40,427 nucleotides of DNA, from IMG/VR virus record IMGVR_UViG_2636416136_000013, positions 1 to 40,427 of that record. One strand, written 5' to 3'. Positions within the stretch are counted from its first letter, which is position 1, and each line of letters begins with the position of its first letter. Positions 6,583 to 13,727 of this stretch are shown in pieces. The DNA is from a virus. Its lineage: Duplodnaviria > Heunggongvirae > Uroviricota > Caudoviricetes. The translations under genes and the position numbers were made by a program. The notes under the pieces were generated by a model. The model was not told the DNA's origin, made no database searches, and saw only the letters and a list, made by a program, of their open reading frames with translations.

Positions 6583-6604
6583 AGGCCGACTATGCGGCCT
6601 TATC
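6583..6604 (-). terminator. Candidate terminator hairpin (minus strand) overlapping the 3' end of the 107-aa gene
   Basis: Stem AGGCCG/CGGCCT followed on the minus strand by TTATTTTTGG. Confidence 0.45.
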
Positions 6605-6913
6605 TACATTCCTGAACCAAACGCAGATCGGACCGTCTTCTGTATCGTGAATCGAACCAACAAACCATCCTTCTCCATCTGGCATGCTTGGCTCCCATCC
6701 GCTGATGTTTGGATTCCCATCTTCAAAATACGAGTCAATTACCGTTTGATTGTTGTCGTTTTCCATTTCAACAATTGATGATTCAATGCCATGCTGCTTG
6801 CAGAAAGATCTGAACTCATCAACTGAAATTACCTCTCTATCCCCAAACAGGTTGGCGTATTCTGGGTGCGTCCAGTAGCCATCCTCGCTTCGCTCTACTA
6901 CTAATGCTTCCAT
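6590..6913 (-). CDS. Hypothetical highly acidic protein (107 aa), first gene after N
   Basis: About 23 Asp/Glu against about 6 Lys/Arg in 107 residues, counted by eye; occupies the position where lambda encodes ral. Confidence 0.6.
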   Translation of the reverse strand: MEALVVERSEDGYWTHPEYANLFGDREVISVDEFRSFCKQHGIESSIVEMENDNNQTVIDSYFEDGNPNISGWEPSMPDGEGWFVGSIHDTEDGPICVWFRNVDKAA

Positions 6914-6921
6914 ATCTCACC

Positions 6922-7248
6922 TCAAATAAGTGGTTTGCTGCCTAATTTCATTTTCTGGCGACCAACACAAGTCATACCCATTTCACTGCGTGGCTTGCTG
7001 TACCATGTGCGCTGATTCTTGCGCTCAATACGTTGCAGGTTGCTTTCAATCTGTTCGTGGTATTCAGCCAGCACCGTAAGGTCTATCGGATTCAGTGCGC
7101 TTTCTACTCGTGATTTCGGTTTGCGATTCAGCGAGAGAATAGGGCGGTTAACTGGTTTTGCGCTTACCCCAACCAACAGGGGATTTGCTGCTTTCCATTG
7201 AGCCTGTTTCTCTGCGCGACGTTCGCGGCGGCGTGCTTGTGCATCCAT
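6922..7248 (-). CDS. N: Antitermination protein N
   Basis: MDAQARRRERRAEKQAQWKAANPLLVGVSAKPVNRPILSLNRKPKSRVESALNPIDLTVLAEYH... is near-identical to lambda N as recalled (arginine-rich boxB-binding motif at the N-terminus). Start set at MDAQ. Confidence 0.92.
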   Translation of the reverse strand: MDAQARRRERRAEKQAQWKAANPLLVGVSAKPVNRPILSLNRKPKSRVESALNPIDLTVLAEYHEQIESNLQRIERKNQRTWYSKPRSEMGMTCVGRQKMKLGSKPLI

Positions 7249-7354
7249 CTGGATTCTCCTGTCAGTTAGCTTTGAGTAACGCGCCGTGATGCTTATCTCC
7301 ACGGTTGCTGTCTTGCAGCTGCATTTCGCGCTACTCAAAGCCTTCTGCTTTGAA

Positions 7355-7395
7355 TGCTGCCCTTCTTCAGGGCTAAATTTTTAAGAGCCTCACCT
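7355..7395 (-). promoter_or_regulatory. nutL site (boxA and boxB)
   Basis: Minus-strand reading gives GGCTCTTAAAAATTTAGCCCTGAAGAAGGGC: boxA-like CTCTTAA plus the boxB hairpin GCCCTGAAGAAGGGC (plus 7359..7373), matching lambda nutL. Confidence 0.8.
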
Positions 7396-7428
7396 TCAAT
7401 GGTGGTCAGTGCGTCCTGCTGATGGCTA

Positions 7429-7457
7429 AATAGTACGATTTGTACTTTATCGAGTCA
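7429..7457 (-). promoter_or_regulatory. Candidate PL promoter with overlapping OL operator
   Basis: Minus strand reads TTGACT, 17-nt spacer, TACTAT; the spacer and -10 overlap a perfect palindrome AGTAC-N5-GTACT (plus 7431..7445). Confidence 0.6.
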
Positions 7458-7522
7458 ATACAAAATGTTCTAAATATAATTAGTTTTTTATAACGCTTTG
7501 TATTTAATGGGTTTATATTTTG

Positions 7523-7553
7523 GAAAAAGAAAACCCGGCGCTGAGGCCGGGTT
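7523..7553 (-). terminator. Rho-independent terminator ending the cI / 348-aa gene transcript
   Basis: Stem CCCGGC/GCCGGG with 6-nt loop followed on the minus strand by TTTTCTTTTT, just downstream of the 348-aa ORF stop. Confidence 0.7.
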
Positions 7554-7562
7554 TGGAGTGCA

Positions 7563-8609
7563 TCACTCTGGTTCGCTGGGGAATATATTTATCAATTGCC
7601 CTGTTGAAATGTGCCCATTTTCTACAACCTCTAGGTATGAAATTTCAACAGTTGATTCTTTGGCTACAGCATTCAAAAACTCAAGAAGCTCATCAGTAGA
7701 TGTTATGTCGGCTGAGGTTTTTATGGTGAAAGATTCACCATTTGAAACCCTTATGACGTCAATATTTATGTCCTGATTTGTTTCTCCCGAGCGACGAACG
7801 CCAGTGACATAAAAGTTATCTCTTCTAGTTTCCTTTTTTCGATCAATTGATTGTCTTTGGTTTAAGGTATTCAACTGTTCTCTATTTACCACTCTCTGAC
7901 CAATTGTTACCCTCTCAACTGACGAGTCTTGAGCAAGCTTTTTAAGCAACTTGCTTTTACCATCCTCGCCGTGAGCCAGAACCTCTCTGCTAATGTTTGT
8001 TTGACCGCTAATCAACAACTTGAGCACATTGTCTTGTGCTTCGTTTACCGCTTTGGTGCTTTTTTCCACCAATTGCACCTGAGAATCTTGGTCATGTCGC
8101 TGTGTTTCGTAGTACTCATTGATCCACTTATAGCCTACCGTGCTGGCAGCTAAGACGATAGCGGCGACGGCGCATAGTGCTTGCCTTCCTGTCATTTTGC
8201 CTATCGCTTGAGTAAACACTGTCACCACTCCGTTTACAATCGGATCTGAGTCACCATCCGCTTGGCTTGAGCCTTCGCTTATTCGGTAGACAATATCCAG
8301 CAAACCTTTCTCTGCATCTTTTAGCTTCTGCCGATTATGAGTGCTGTGACTGACTACCGTAAATGCTTTTTGTATTTCATGCGTAAGCTCTGCCATACCA
8401 AAAAGCATTGACGCAGTCAATGAAGAATTATATCTATTTGGATCGCCTTTTACATTAATATTGATCTTTGGCCATCCACTGAAAACTACGTTAGGGAATG
8501 TGAAGTCGCTTGAGTCGATATCCTTCCTTCCGAGCATTTCTGTTACAAAAGATACAAAGTCGTCTTCTGACTTGATAACATATTGCGCAGGTTGATCAAT
8601 CGCTGACAT
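7563..8609 (-). CDS. Hypothetical 348-aa protein with one central hydrophobic segment, in the rexAB-equivalent position
   Basis: Starts 25 nt downstream of the cI stop on the same strand, with AAGGA Shine-Dalgarno 7 nt upstream; hydrophobic stretch ALCAVAAIVLAASTVGY mid-protein; followed by a terminator. No recognisable family. Confidence 0.7.
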   Translation of the reverse strand: MSAIDQPAQYVIKSEDDFVSFVTEMLGRKDIDSSDFTFPNVVFSGWPKININVKGDPNRYNSSLTASMLFGMAELTHEIQKAFTVVSHSTHNRQKLKDAEKGLLDIVYRISEGSSQADGDSDPIVNGVVTVFTQAIGKMTGRQALCAVAAIVLAASTVGYKWINEYYETQRHDQDSQVQLVEKSTKAVNEAQDNVLKLLISGQTNISREVLAHGEDGKSKLLKKLAQDSSVERVTIGQRVVNREQLNTLNQRQSIDRKKETRRDNFYVTGVRRSGETNQDINIDVIRVSNGESFTIKTSADITSTDELLEFLNAVAKESTVEISYLEVVENGHISTGQLINIFPSEPE

Positions 8610-8634
8610 TCTTAATCCTTAACATCCATTCCTA

Positions 8635-9288
8635 TCACCCAAACGTCTCTTCTGGCCACTGGCTGGCGATAACTTTCCCTACAACGGAACAGCTATCATT
8701 GCATGGGATCATTGGATATTGCGGGTTTAGTGGTTGTAGGAACACCTGACCGCTATCCCTGATCAGTTTCTTGAAGGTAAACTCGTCACCACCAAGTCTG
8801 GCTATGCAGAAATCACCTGGCTCAACAGCCTGCTCAGGGTCAACGAGAATTAACATCCCGTCAGGAAAGCTTGGCTTGGATCCTGTTGGTGCGGTCATGG
8901 AATTACCTTCAACTTCAAGCCAAAACGCACAATCACTGGCTTTTTTGGTTGTGCTGACCCATCTCTCCGCATCACCTTTGGTAAAGGTTCTAAGCTCAGG
9001 CGAGAACATCCCGGCCTGAACATGAGAAAAAACAGGGTACTCATATTGTTTTTTAACGGGGGCAGATGAGTATTCGCCAACAGGTGAAAATGTACCGTCG
9101 TGGTTGAATGAGACGTTATCAATACCAAGGTATTTAAACACCACACCAATCTCGTCAAGAGATGGATGACGAGATCCGCGCAACCAGTGACCAATTCCAC
9201 CCTGCGTCATACCAAGCTCTTCAGCCAACTTCTCTTGAGTTATGCCGAGCTCTTTCATTCTGGATCTAGCCAGTTCATACCATTTCAT
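8635..9288 (-). CDS. cI: CI-type prophage repressor (lambda-identical C-terminal domain, distinct HTH N-terminal domain)
   Basis: C-terminal ~130 aa ([38 protein letters not shown]...[12 protein letters not shown]) matches lambda CI including the Ala-Gly cleavage site and Ser/Lys catalytic residues; N-terminal HTH ([35 protein letters not shown]) differs. Start set at MKWYE (AGGA 7 nt upstream). Confidence 0.92.
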
Positions 9289-9350
9289 TTTCATATCCTT
9301 ATTATTACGCTCTGTACTAAAACCATCCATGCACAAGATGTATTTTTTGT

Positions 9351-9379
9351 TTGCATTCCAAAAGTACATATCGTATTAT
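9351..9379 (+). promoter_or_regulatory. Candidate PR promoter with overlapping OR operator
   Basis: TTGCAT (9351..9356), 17-nt spacer, TATTAT (9374..9379); the spacer contains AAGTACATATCGTATT, resembling the OL palindrome. Confidence 0.6.
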
Positions 9380-9405
9380 TGTCTCATGGTTACTATGGAG
9401 GGCAT

Positions 9406-9621
9406 ATGAGCAACCTACGAAAATATCGAGAGTCACTGAATATCTCTCAAACAACACTTGCTAAGGCGGTTGGATGCACACAGGGAGCTATTGGGCATTG
9501 GGAATCTGGTCGTCGCTTCCCAGACCTTAAAACATGCCGCGCTCTTGTTGCATGCCTAAACAAGTTAGGCGCAAAAGTCAGTCTTGATGACGTGTTCCCT
9601 CCGGAACACAAAGCCGCTTAA
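9406..9621 (+). CDS. cro: Cro-like HTH repressor (XRE family)
   Basis: 71 aa, MSNLRKYRESLNISQTTLAKAVGCTQGAIGHWESGRRFPD...; GGAGGG Shine-Dalgarno; divergent from cI across the operator region. Confidence 0.75.
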   Translation: MSNLRKYRESLNISQTTLAKAVGCTQGAIGHWESGRRFPDLKTCRALVACLNKLGAKVSLDDVFPPEHKAA

Positions 9622-9629
9622 GACATTCC

Positions 9630-9661
9630 CGCTCTTACACATTCCAGCCCTGAAAAAGGGC
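9630..9661 (+). promoter_or_regulatory. nutR site (boxA CGCTCTTAC and boxB GCCCTGAAAAAGGGC)
   Basis: Sequence between cro and cII matches lambda nutR boxA/boxB. Confidence 0.85.
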
Positions 9662-9740
9662 ATCAAATTAAACCACACCTATGGTGTATGCATTTATTTG
9701 CATACATTCAATCAATTGTTATCTAAGGAAATACTTACAT

Positions 9741-10034
9741 ATGGTTCGTGCAAACAAACGCAACGAGGCTCTAAGAATCGAGAGTGCGTTGCTTAACAAA
9801 ATCGCAATGCTTGGAACTGAGAAGACAGCGGAAGCTGTGGGAGTTGATAAGTCGCAGATCAGCAGGTGGAAGAGGGACTGGATTCCAAAGTTCTCAATGC
9901 TGCTTGCTGTTCTTGAATGGGGTGTCGTCGACGACGACATGGCTCGATTGGCACGACAAGTTGCTTCGATTCTCACCAATAAAAAACGCCCGGCGGCAAC
10001 CGAGCGTTCTGAACAAATACAAATGGAATTTTAA
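9741..10034 (+). CDS. cII: Transcriptional activator CII
   Basis: MVRANKRNEALRIESALLNKIAMLGTEKTAEAVGVDKSQISRWKRDWIPKFSMLLAVLEWGVVDDDMARLARQVASILTNKKRPAATERSEQIQMEF is essentially lambda CII; the upstream sequence ttgcatacattcaatcaattgttatctaaggaaatacttacat also matches lambda. Confidence 0.95.
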   Translation: MVRANKRNEALRIESALLNKIAMLGTEKTAEAVGVDKSQISRWKRDWIPKFSMLLAVLEWGVVDDDMARLARQVASILTNKKRPAATERSEQIQMEF

Positions 10035-10056
10035 TAACATCCAACTAGGCAATTAT

Positions 10057-10329
10057 ATGCGAAACAAAGGCTTTAATCCACCTGATACACACAAAGAAGC
10101 TAAGCGTTTGCGCTTCCTTCGTTCCATTGATGAAAGAACTCAAATCTCTTTTGTGAAAGTTGCCAGAACTGAGCTTCTGAAGGCTGAGGCGAGGGCGTTG
10201 CTCCCGTCTCTACCAAAAGAGGAGGGATATACGTTCATTCCAAACGCATTTCTGGAAAAGCTGCTCAAAGAAGACATATCCGTAAGTCAGTTTAACGATG
10301 TTCTTAAGGTCTTTCGTCAAGGCAGGTAG
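10057..10329 (+). CDS. Hypothetical protein (90 aa) between cII and the replication genes
   Basis: ORF frame 9784..10329, start set at MRNKGFNPPDTHKEAKRLRFL... just downstream of the cII stop. Confidence 0.5.
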   Translation: MRNKGFNPPDTHKEAKRLRFLRSIDERTQISFVKVARTELLKAEARALLPSLPKEEGYTFIPNAFLEKLLKEDISVSQFNDVLKVFRQGR

Positions 10330-10331
10330 TT

Positions 10332-11279
10332 ATGAGCAATACAGCAAAAATCTACGATTTCAGCGCCGCACACGAGCGCAGGAGCAACAGGATGGAGAAC
10401 CAGAAAACTGGTTACATTCCGTTGTACCGGAGCATTCTGAAACAGTCATGGGCGAAAGATGTTTATCTTCGCACCCTGTGGGAAAACCTTCTCCTGAATG
10501 CCGCCAGAAAGCCATACAAAGCGAATTTCAAAGGTCATGAATGGCATCTGCAACCCGGTCAACTGGTTGTGACAGCAGCTGATTTAGGTCTTCAGTTATG
10601 CGACAGGCATGGCAAGCCGGCAAGCCGTGATCAGGTTGAGCGGATGCTTCAGGTTTTTGTGAAAGAGGGGATGATCTCCATTGATGGGGAGAAGCAAAAA
10701 GGTCGTGTGATAACCATCACAAATTACCATGAATATGCTCAAAAAATGGACAATTCACCCGCACATGAAGCCGCACAAACAACCGCACATGAAGCCGCAC
10801 ATGATGAAGCCAGTAATGGCGCGGCTTTCAGCGCACATGCCGCACATGAAAGCGCACATGAAGCCACACAAACAACCGCACATCATGAACAAGAAGGTAT
10901 TAACAAGAATATAAATAATACCCCCCTACCCCCCAATGGGGGAGGCGATGGGCAGGTTAAACCTGAACGTCGCAAGGCAGAACGAATCGACTACGAATCC
11001 TTCCTGAACGCCTACAACACCGAAGTCGGTGACAGACTGCCACACGCTGTTGCGGTCAACGAGAAACGCAAACGCCGCCTGAAGAAAATCATCCCGCAAC
11101 TGAAAACGCCAAACGTGGACGGTTTCAGAGCGTATGTCAGGGCGTTTGTACATCAGGCCAAGCCGTTTTACTTCGGAGACAACGACACTGGCTGGACGGC
11201 AGATTTTGATTACCTGCTGAGGGAAGATTCGTTAACGGGAGTTCGGGAAGGGAAGTTTGCAGACAGGGGGATTGCATGA
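10332..11279 (+). CDS. O: Replication initiation protein (O-like; internal repeat-encoded linker)
   Basis: Located where lambdoid phages encode O / P22 gene 18; [10 protein letters not shown] start resembles lambda O; central region encodes repeated AHEA/TTAH units from DNA direct repeats; stop overlaps the helicase start (ATGA). Confidence 0.75.
10758..10899 (+). repeat. Iteron-like direct repeats inside the O-like gene (candidate replication origin) followed by an AT-rich stretch
   Basis: Multiple copies of CGCACATGAAGCC / GCACATG units within ~140 bp, then aacaagaatataaataata and a C-rich/G-rich inverted element; the same layout as ori-lambda inside O. Confidence 0.6.
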
Positions 11280-13669
11280 GACAGGATATCGAAGCGAGCG
11301 TTATCGGTGGCCTGCTGATTGGTGGATTAACTCCAACCGCCAGTGACGTTCTGGCAACGCTTGAGCCGGAAGCGTTTTCAATTCCGCTCTACAGGAAAGC
11401 CTTCGAAGTTATCCGTAAGCAGGCGAGAAACAGAAATCTAATCGACGCGCTGATGGTTGCCGAGGCGTGCGGAGAGGAGCATTTCACGTCAATCCTGATG
11501 ACCAGCAAAAACTGCCCGAGTACCGCAAACCTGAAGGGATATGCCGGAATGGTCGCGGATAACTATCACCGCCGTCTGGTGCTGGAAATCATGGATGAAA
11601 TGCGTGAACCAATTCAGAGCGGAACCATCGACGCGTCGAGTCAGGCGATGGATGAACTTGTAAAGCGTCTCTCAGCTATCAGAAAGCCCCGTGACGAGGT
11701 TAAACCGGTACGCTTAGGGGAAATCATCACCGACTACACTGACACGCTTGACAGGCGTCTGAGGAACGGAGAAGAGTCAGATACCCTGAAGACCGGAATC
11801 GAAGAACTTGATGCCATCACCGGAGGGATGAACGCGGAAGACCTGGTGATAATCGCTGCTCGTCCTGGTATGGGGAAAGCAATGGCGCTAAGCGAAGGGA
11901 TTTTACTTGCAGATGGCACCTGGACTACTCACGGAGAAGTCAAAATTGGCGATCGCATCGCGTCAATAGACGGGCTTCCTTCGGAGGTAATTGGCGTCTT
12001 CCCACAAGGGAAGAAATTCACATATTTAGTCACCTTTGAAGACGGACGTAGCGTGAAATGTGCCGACAACCACTTATGGGAAATTTCATCATCAAGATTT
12101 ACTGGTAAACGCGTTGTTGATACTGATGCGCTGGCTGGGATGCTACAAAAAACACGTTATCAGGGAAGAATAAGAGTGCCATCCTTGACCGGAGACTTTG
12201 GTAAAAATATTTCCCTTGATGGTTGGGTTATTGGTGCTCTACTTGGTGACGGTTCGTTGATAAAAGGCATCAAATTCACCAACTCGGAAGAATATGTCCT
12301 GAGCCGCATGAGTGATGCAATTGCACCATTGCGACTGGTTAAGGTAGGAGAGAATGATTATTTGATAAGCAACCAAAAAGGCCAGAAGAACCCACTATTG
12401 GACAAACTACGTGGCATTGGGGTGATCGGGAAAGGTGCGTCCGAGAAGGAAATCCCAGCAGAAATTTTTAGTGCTAGCAAAGAAATACGTACCGGTGTTT
12501 TAACTGGCCTTCTCGAGACAGATGGCTGGGTTGAGAAGTCCGGATGCATCCGCTTTAGTTCATCCAGTCAGAAATTAGCTAAAGGATTAGTAAGGCTTGT
12601 TAGATCTTTAGGTGGAACCGCCAAAGAATCCAGCAGGACGGGAATAGTTTACACGTACAAAGGAGAGAAGCATGACGGACTTGATGCACACATGGTCAGC
12701 ATGAAGTTGCCATCATCTTTGATAGAGCAAATTCACTCACCACGTTTACGCAAAAATCTCGGGATTAACAGGCTTGGCGACCTTGGTGTGGGTATCAAAT
12801 CGGTTGAAGTTGTTGAGCCAGAAGAGTGTCTCTGCATCATGGTAAGCCATCCTAGCCATCTCTATGTGACAACGGATTACATCGTTACGCACAATACGGA
12901 ACTGGCGCTGAAGATTGCCGAAGGCGTTGCAAGCCGCGTTATTCCTGGTTCTGACGTCCGGCGCGGGGTATTGATTTTCTCAATGGAAATGAGCGCATTG
13001 CAGATTGCAGAGCGAAGCATTGCCAACGCCGGGAGGATGTCGGTTAGCGTACTGCGAAATCCTGCATCGATGGATGACGAAGGCTGGGCGCGCGTTGCTA
13101 ACGGCATGAGTCAGCTTGCAGATTTGGATGTATGGGTAGTCGATGCCTCGCGGTTATCGGTCGAAGAAATACGCTCAATCGCAGAACGGCACAAACAGGA
13201 AAATCCAAACCTGTCACTCATCATGGCGGATTATCTTGGCCTGATTGAGAAGCCGAAAGCAGATCGCAACGACCTCGCAATTGCTCACATCTCCGGAAGC
13301 CTTAAGGCGATGGCGAAAGACCTGAAAACGCCTGTGATCTCCCTAAGTCAGCTTTCGCGCGATGTTGAGAAGCGACCAAACAAACGCCCGACAAACGCAG
13401 ATTTGCGTGATTCAGGAAGCATTGAACAGGACGCAGACTCAATCATCATGCTCTATCGGGAAGCGGTATATGACGAGAACAGTAGCGCCGCGCCATTTGC
13501 TGAAATCATCGTGACGAAAAACCGTTTTGGCTCACTTGGTACGGTTTACCAGCGGTTCTGTAACGGACACTTTGTTGCATGTGACCAGGATGAAGCCAGA
13601 CAGATTTGCACAGCATCAAATGCACCTGCTGCGCGTGGCAGACGATATGCACAAGGGGCTGACGTATGA
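11276..13669 (+). CDS. DnaB-family replicative helicase interrupted by an intein
   Basis: Walker A ...[11 protein letters not shown] is split from [10 protein letters not shown]...; C-terminal DnaB motifs follow ([49 protein letters not shown]). The exteins alone total ~458 aa, normal for DnaB. Confidence 0.9.
11879..12895 (+). mobile_element. Intein (~339 aa) with a LAGLIDADG homing-endonuclease domain inserted in the helicase P-loop
   Basis: Block A-like A(M)[13 protein letters not shown] after GMGK; block B NHLW; two LAGLIDADG motifs ([13 protein letters not shown] and [14 protein letters not shown]); block F ECLCIMV; block G YIVTHN followed by Thr. The exact N-terminal boundary is uncertain by about 2 residues. 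Confidence 0.8.
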
Positions 13670-13693
13670 CCATCTACATCACTGAGCTAATAA

Positions 13694-13727
13694 CAGGCCT
13701 GCTGGTAATCGCAGGCCTTTTTATTTT
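13694..13727 (+). terminator. Rho-independent terminator after the helicase gene
   Basis: Stem CAGGCCTGC/GCAGGCCTT with loop, followed by TTTTTATTTT. Confidence 0.7.

Follow-up and report, generated by a model that had tools for sequence, protein, structure and literature searches.

We analyzed a 40,427-nucleotide (nt) stretch of DNA from a virus of the Caudoviricetes (IMG/VR record IMGVR_UViG_2636416136_000013, positions 1 to 40,427; hereafter the window). Between its repressor gene cI and its lambda-type antiterminator gene N lies an open reading frame (ORF) of 348 amino acids, the subject of this work. An earlier note on this DNA, made from the sequence alone, had described a 348 amino acid gene that starts 25 nt after the cI stop codon on the same strand, has its own Shine-Dalgarno sequence, is followed at once by a terminator, and lies in the rexAB position between cI and OL/PL. 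Our analysis bears this out: ORF and spacer can be read directly, AAGGA precedes the ATG, a stem and a T-rich tract follow the gene, and operators, a PL-like promoter and an N gene of the N36 type were identified (Table 1). The terminator hairpin starts 8 nt past the stop codon of the gene and is the counterpart of lambda t_imm. The OL palindromes (AGTAC-N5-GTACT) are at 7432-7446 (perfect) and 7457-7471, with a weaker third repeat copy at 7493-7508. With at most one mismatch, this palindrome has three matches in the 40-kb window, all inside OL or OR; PRM is presumed to lie in the OR region. These features therefore give the layout OR/PRM - cI - gene - terminator - OL/PL - N, and the gene occupies the position of lambda rexA-rexB, inside the cI transcription unit.

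The 25-nt spacer is too short for a promoter or terminator, and a sequence scan detected no such site in it, so the gene here would rely on the cI promoters. From the short gap, the promoter-free spacer and the shared terminator we infer that the gene is co-transcribed with cI. With its insertion point after the cI stop codon and ahead of the cI terminator, the cassette should be transcribed along with the repressor in every lysogen. A terminator-like hairpin (8422..8406) and a promoter-like site (8363..8334) inside the ORF occur at chance frequency and were disregarded. For cI itself, the choice of start codon is uncertain. The mechanical ORF reaches as far back as 9369, across the OR operators, and the coding sequence annotated in Escherichia phage phi458 has just 576 nt; the Met at 9294 (MKMKWYEL...) gives a 219 amino acid cI with complete helix-turn-helix (HTH) and S24 domains.

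Table 1. Features of the cI-N interval and domains of the 348 amino acid protein (window coordinates)
Feature	Position	Strand	Evidence and remarks
348 amino acid ORF (subject gene)	7563..8609	-	ATG at 8609, stop codon 7565..7563; unnamed family phrog_6191
cI repressor	8635..9294	-	Pfam HTH_3 E 8e-11 and Peptidase_S24 E 9e-29; TGA at 8637..8635
cI-to-gene spacer	8610..8634	-	25 nt; Shine-Dalgarno AAGGA at 8620..8616, 6 nt 5' of ATG
Intrinsic terminator of the cI-gene unit	7521..7554	-	stem 7554..7531, 9 pairs, 6 G-C, then TCTTTTTCC
OL/PL region	7430..7505	-	promoter-like TTGACT-17-TACTAT at 7458..7430, overlapped by operator-like palindromes
OR region	9304..9377	.	operator-like AGTAC-N5-GTACT at 9304-9318 and 9363-9377, 1 mismatch each, between cI and cro
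Lambda-type antiterminator N	6922..7248	-	Pfam N36 E 3e-25; first PL-operon gene, far edge of the cI-N interval
N-terminal alpha/beta domain	residues 1-140 (model 9-138); 8190..8609	-	AlphaFold2 model
Hydrophobic helix	residues 141-160 (model 141-155); 8130..8189	-	hydropathy and model
Linker to short helix	residues 161-256; 7842..8129	-	AlphaFold2 model
C-terminal OB fold	residues 257-348 (model 257-343); 7566..7841	-	three strands, helix 305-317, two strands

Is the ORF a real gene? Against an 88% identical homologue, the ratio of nonsynonymous to synonymous substitution rates (dN/dS) is 0.04, with synonymous sites near saturation. This ratio and the 939 homologous clusters described below indicate a genuine gene, kept by strong purifying selection, and not a chance ORF. 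From 7300 to 9700, the window and phi458 (OP434518) agree at 99.9% identity, and the phi458 annotation lists the gene as hypothetical Orf11. Past cII on the right (9700-13700), the window has an O-like gene and a DnaB helicase, whereas the replication genes annotated in phi458 are of the O and P types. The window is therefore a mosaic relative of this phage, not phi458 itself.

The gene is optional. Phages Dewey, Louie, vB_EcoP-720R6 and 683R2 have cI and PL flanks that are about 98% identical to those of the window, and lack the gene; in Dewey, a homologous terminator hairpin stands directly after cI and all downstream sequence is identical. A segment with more than 99% identity, reaching from 8661/8664 to 7525/7530, is found behind three different repressor alleles in IMG/VR prophages (including those at loci L011, L012 and L016). 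Of these alleles, all of them S24 repressors, one is the window's own, a second shares 48% identity with it, and the third shows no detectable similarity to it. The identity of the cassette ends at 7525-7530, so the terminator moves along with it. The shared boundaries therefore define a mobile unit of about 1.13 kb, made up of ribosome-binding site, ORF and terminator. In the L016 lineage, about 27 nt of a foreign cI 3' end are carried with the cassette, a remnant that records the recombination event. By these comparisons the gene is a moron, an optional prophage accessory cassette exchanged between heteroimmune phages.

The family to which the gene belongs is large. A word-indexed search found 56 relatives, the named ones all from Enterobacterales and all called hypothetical. 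An exhaustive profile search found 939 clusters (50% identity) at E ≤ 1e-3, of which 578 reach E ≤ 1e-10; the median length among the best 150 listed clusters of this search is 335 amino acids. All named family members come from Gammaproteobacteria, with sources that include Aeromonas, Pseudomonas, Pseudoalteromonas, Photobacterium, Halomonas and Thiothrix, and Pasteurella via a phage. Distant homologues are overall 25-41% identical to the query. Among them are those of phages PhiR12_2 (L003, 3983-5008) and mEp332 (L005, 3887-4924), which share 25% identity with the query and 42% with each other. Each lies directly 3' of its own, different cI and upstream of N. Both bear the GenBank label “T2SS GspM containing protein,” for which we found no Pfam support at E ≤ 1. 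A homologue in P0057 (41% identity) likewise follows a different S24 repressor and precedes N. Counting IMG/VR loci and distant homologues together, a family member follows at least nine distinct S24 repressor alleles.

Other copies are found away from cI, at further sites typical of phage accessory genes. Some lie between a host gene and an integrase, some after the tail-fibre module, adjoining the attachment site, one within a Mu-like baseplate cluster (L044), and one in an Aeromonas integrative element. A pattern-based scan of genome contigs for family loci gave 11 loci. Among 130 neighbouring ORFs in the contexts without cI, the dominant Pfam families are tail-fibre assembly protein, resolvase/invertase, baseplate J and integrase, and PADLOC defence models match sporadically. 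No conserved partner gene was found at any family locus examined; the gene is always alone. In Pseudoalteromonas sp. P1-9 (L049, 9096-10980), an AbiEi/AbiEii pair stands about 3 kb away from a distant member, which is surrounded by three large ORFs (432-679 amino acids) with no function assigned; this neighbourhood may be a defence island.

What can be learned from the protein itself? The query matches phrog_6191 over almost its full length (residues 7-342 of 348, E 5.8e-36), a family to which no function is assigned. Scans of the query against Pfam, NCBIfam and PADLOC (PADLOC-DB v2.0.0) gave nothing above noise. The same holds for 102 diverse members, where PADLOC gave scattered single matches (best E 1e-4) and one of the 102 matched PAP_PilO (E 0.005), a match that the query lacks, as it lacks any other in Pfam. 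Weak matches to fvmX3-analog and FtsH_ext fall far below the Pfam cut-offs. A search of PDB sequences, with the single sequence and with the profile, gave a marginal match to the transmembrane/linker part of MotB (E 0.003) that we judge to be a composition effect. No catalytic motif is evident, and no adhesin, enzyme or secretion signature was found in the Pfam scans of the query and the 102 members. Literature searches on phi458, mEp332, PhiR12 and defence genes downstream of cI brought up no work on this gene. Papers retrieved for PhiR12 were all unrelated, and the gene goes unmentioned in the phi458 paper (PMC9701743).

The structural model gains confidence once diverse relatives are included. 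With 24 sequences AlphaFold2 gave a mean predicted local distance difference test score (pLDDT) of 64; with 102 diverse sequences the pLDDT is 87.6 and the predicted template modelling score (pTM) 0.76. The N-terminal domain is the best conserved part (mean column identity 0.42, versus 0.31 for the C-terminal domain). Its conserved residues (F43, GWP at 45-47, G55, L96, G113-[SC]114-[ST]115, M139) are mainly structural, with G-[S/C]-[S/T] at 113-115 near-invariant. Residues 161-256 comprise a low-confidence linker (170-177), a helical hairpin (179-201, 205-226), a small beta-hairpin and a short helix. In the model, the C-terminal domain is a five-stranded barrel with an alpha-helix between strands 3 and 4, that is, an oligonucleotide/oligosaccharide-binding (OB) fold. 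Its best structural matches are periplasmic or secreted proteins (SilF/CusF, B subunits of AB5 toxins, YgiW), at 8-15% sequence identity. OB folds are too widespread for such a match to imply a function, and no metal-binding or sugar-binding motif was identified in this domain. Its net charge is -4 here and -0.9 on average in the family, where 34% of members are positive; a domain that is not basic would tend to argue against nucleic-acid binding. The remote-homology and structure searches that the earlier note had called for yielded a fold for the C-terminal domain; for the N-terminal domain, the matches listed (60 in the fold comparison) include neither a fold nor a sequence relative.

The central segment ALCAVAAIVLAASTVGY (residues 144-160) is the one hydrophobic peak of the protein. 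Its Kyte-Doolittle maximum over 19 residues, 1.72, is over the classical threshold. The peak is kept at the same position across the family though its sequence varies: the Eisenberg mean hydrophobicity over 21 residues is at least 0.42 in all 102 aligned members, the median hydrophobic moment is 0.09, and in 72 of the 102 the segment has no charged residue. Because hydrophobicity is conserved, the moment low and the segment mostly uncharged, the central helix is very probably a membrane span, and probably a single one. The same note had seen one central hydrophobic segment in a membrane-associated protein that shows no recognizable motif; our results support all three points, with phrog_6191 as the sole family match. 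Which side faces the cytoplasm? A 140-residue N-terminal domain without a signal peptide is unlikely to be exported, and the 348 amino acid protein has no N-terminal signal sequence. In the family alignment, cysteine is scarcer in the C-terminal half than in the N-terminal domain. Since no signal peptide precedes the large first domain, the C-terminal half is poor in cysteine and the OB domain is not basic, we favour a topology in which the N-terminus would be inside and the C-terminus outside.

How does this protein compare with known products of prophage immunity regions? Like lambda Rex, the gene lies downstream of cI, in the predicted PRM transcript, with a terminator before OL/PL, and both involve a membrane component. 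RexB is described as a multi-span ion channel (PMC8585504). Rex consists of two genes, for the soluble DNA-binding RexA and for RexB (144 amino acids in the lambda record), whereas here a single ORF between cI and the terminator encodes one hydrophobic peak and two flanking folded domains. An hhalign comparison gives a probability of 0.3% for RexA and for RexB alike. P22 SieA, HK97 gp15, T4 Imm/Sp and P1 Sim are inner-membrane or periplasmic proteins, expressed from prophages, that block genome entry; they are small (about 60-260 amino acids) and have no large cytoplasmic domain. The hhalign probability is 0.3% for SieA and 2.3% for SieB, where the hydrophobic stretch alone aligns. HK97 gp15 is a moron among tail genes, as is the homologue in L044; gp15, Imm/Sp and Sim are set apart here by description only. 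BstA is a soluble KilA-N-type protein, and the subject protein differs in having no Pfam domain. BstA of the Salmonella prophage BTP1 resembles the subject gene in being a single gene directly 3' of the repressor, presumably under a shared promoter, with synteny kept across diverse homologues and a Rho-independent terminator of its own (PMC8585504). Its place of action is in the cytoplasm, where phage DNA is being replicated, and it has a DNA element for self-immunity, aba (PMC8585504).

The nearest architecture is that of staphylococcal PdpSau and lactococcal AbiP, each the product of a single accessory gene at a prophage moron site and each joining an anchoring helix to an OB-fold-like domain (PMC10127798). 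Their helix is N-terminal, whereas here it is central and preceded by a 140-residue domain; their C-terminal domain, basic and cytoplasmic, is described as binding nucleic acid (PMC10127798), and the OB domain here has a net charge of -4. Against phage 53 ORF016 (278 amino acids), which represents PdpSau, the hhalign probability is 0.1%; AbiP was compared by description alone. These comparisons indicate that the protein belongs to none of the RexA, RexB, SieA, SieB and PdpSau families. After RexAB and BstA, the cassette is a third occupant of the cI-N slot, unrelated to either.

What might such a gene do? That the gene is optional, exchanged, self-sufficient and linked to repressors or prophage ends speaks for a role of use to the lysogen. 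The cI-N interval is a documented hotspot of diversity, and RexAB and BstA, both located there, are proven to act by abortive infection (PMC8585504). Given this context and these known occupants, we lean towards some anti-phage role for the gene, which its genomic setting makes plausible. The earlier note had named it a candidate for exclusion or abortive infection. The candidacy stands as far as context goes, with at least nine S24 alleles and the cI-N hotspot in its favour, and homology to a known defence protein was not found with PADLOC or by hhalign against RexA, RexB, SieA, SieB and PdpSau.

As a specific mechanism we tentatively propose superinfection exclusion by blocked genome entry at the envelope, a possible but by no means probable form of that role. 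The gene would be transcribed from PRM together with cI in every lysogen, and its product would be a single-span inner-membrane protein with the conserved 140-residue domain in the cytoplasm and a helical-hairpin stalk bearing an OB-fold head in the periplasm. Stalk and head would bind the DNA-delivery machinery of an incoming phage, or a host envelope protein that this machinery needs. Binding would stop genome entry and so protect the lysogen from superinfecting phages.

Several observations weigh against this proposal. The presumed cytoplasmic domain is the most conserved part of the protein, and a simple periplasmic blocker would not need one. The proven occupants of the slot, RexAB and BstA, act from the cytoplasm by abortive infection (PMC8585504). 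Similarity to known exclusion or defence proteins was found neither with PADLOC nor by hhalign against RexA, RexB, SieA, SieB and PdpSau. The helix is moderately hydrophobic (Kyte-Doolittle 1.72; the Hessa-scale sum of this protein is +3.0 kcal/mol), and the positive-inside rule is uninformative as to topology, with lysine plus arginine at 2.3 on the N side and 2.6 on the C side. Distant relatives also stand as lone chromosomal insertions amid housekeeping genes, so the family is not confined to prophages. Such positions, for example between RDD/lptFG and degQ in Aeromonas, are less typical of phage-exclusion genes. Additionally, the cassette gene occurs in just 18 of 5,426 complete E. coli genomes, in every case annotated as a hypothetical protein.

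The conserved N-terminal domain would be better accommodated if the protein were a membrane-anchored sensor-effector of abortive infection, one whose cytoplasmic domain would respond to nucleic acid or to a product made early by the phage, with death of the infected cell as the result. Oligomerisation through the hydrophobic helix, which is rich in small residues, would then collapse the membrane potential, much as RexB, AbiP and PdpSau are described as acting. RexAB and BstA, proven at this very locus, are abortive-infection systems (PMC8585504), and PdpSau, which depolarises infected cells, and AbiP are single proteins, prophage- or plasmid-borne, that join a membrane helix to an OB-fold-like domain (PMC10127798), as the subject protein joins a hydrophobic helix to an OB fold. 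We nevertheless consider this mechanism, the main rival, rather unlikely, if only slightly less likely than exclusion at the envelope. The hhalign probability is below 1% against PdpSau, RexA and RexB, the OB domain is acidic to neutral and not basic, and a single moderately hydrophobic helix is a weak pore former. Moreover the helix is central rather than N-terminal, so that a single span would place the N-terminal and OB domains on opposite sides of the membrane. A more novel reading would see the family as a new, widespread class of single-protein phage sensors that work across the envelope. The OB head, held out on its stalk, would perceive DNA on its way through the periplasm or the injection apparatus of the phage, and signal via the one membrane helix to the conserved, novel-fold cytoplasmic domain, which would execute the defence. 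Infection would then be noticed while the genome is still outside the cytoplasm; we hold this reading to be quite improbable.

The gene might also serve the lysogen without any part in defence, as an envelope protein that alters the surface, stress tolerance, biofilm formation or virulence in the manner of lambda Bor and Lom, and that is merely placed in a highly expressed prophage slot. The membrane-protein architecture with a possible periplasmic domain would suit this, and the distant relatives in Aeromonas adjoin envelope-related housekeeping genes (lptFG, degQ). In its avian pathogenic E. coli (APEC) host, the phi458 prophage changes biofilm formation and virulence, with no gene assigned (PMC9701743); the authors, however, ascribe these phenotypes to repressors, and they are not mapped (PMC9701743). 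We think such a lysogenic-conversion role unlikely, for the tight, repeated linkage to repressors or prophage ends in heteroimmune phages fits known defence morons, and the Pfam scans revealed no signature of an adhesin, an enzyme or secretion. Involvement in the phage's own switch would draw on the predicted co-expression with cI in the immunity region, and RexAB has such a secondary role according to work cited in PMC12315714. Yet phages with identical cI, operators and PL manage without the gene, the same cassette sits behind unrelated repressors, and family members also occur outside any prophage, which makes this role very improbable. We give equally little credence to a soluble cytoplasmic protein that would hide its helix in the core of an oligomer and use its OB fold to bind single-stranded nucleic acid. 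The segment is uniformly hydrophobic with a very low moment in 102 of 102 members and uncharged in 72; its hydrophobic property is conserved and its sequence is not. The OB domain, besides not being basic, has its top matches among periplasmic or secreted proteins. Exclusion at the envelope, as proposed above, stays our tentative choice of mechanism.

Some neighbours of the locus deserve mention. To the right of cI follow a cro-like HTH ORF (9406-9621), cII (9741-10034), the O-like gene and the DnaB-type helicase. The replicative helicase (11276-13669, + strand, 797 amino acids) has its DnaB N- and C-terminal domains split by an intein-like insert that carries a LAGLIDADG homing-endonuclease domain; a related lambdoid prophage (L054) is arranged alike. 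The O-like gene (10332-11279) contains, at 10759-10870, tandem repeats of an imperfect 12-nt unit (CCGCACATGAAG, 3.8 and 2.7 copies) that encode a segment rich in His, Ala and Thr. By analogy with lambda, whose ori lies inside gene O, these repeats may be origin iterons. Just downstream of N in the PL operon, a 107 amino acid acidic ORF (6590-6913, - strand) has no Pfam match.

Few places in a lambdoid prophage are expressed as strongly as the slot between cI and N, from which RexAB and BstA are already known. To find another uncharacterized gene behind cI would not surprise a specialist; what is new is the protein family and its architecture, and what is known is the kind of genetic slot. The family comprises more than 900 sequence clusters and is absent from curated protein-family and defence databases. 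As a single gene, the cassette could be cloned and tested in E. coli within days. Even if it proves to have no role in defence, it would still define a common lysogenic-conversion gene. If the gene does protect the lysogen, it would represent a new family of defence proteins, unusual in having folded domains on either side of the inner membrane, and would provide a function for hundreds of genes now labelled hypothetical protein.

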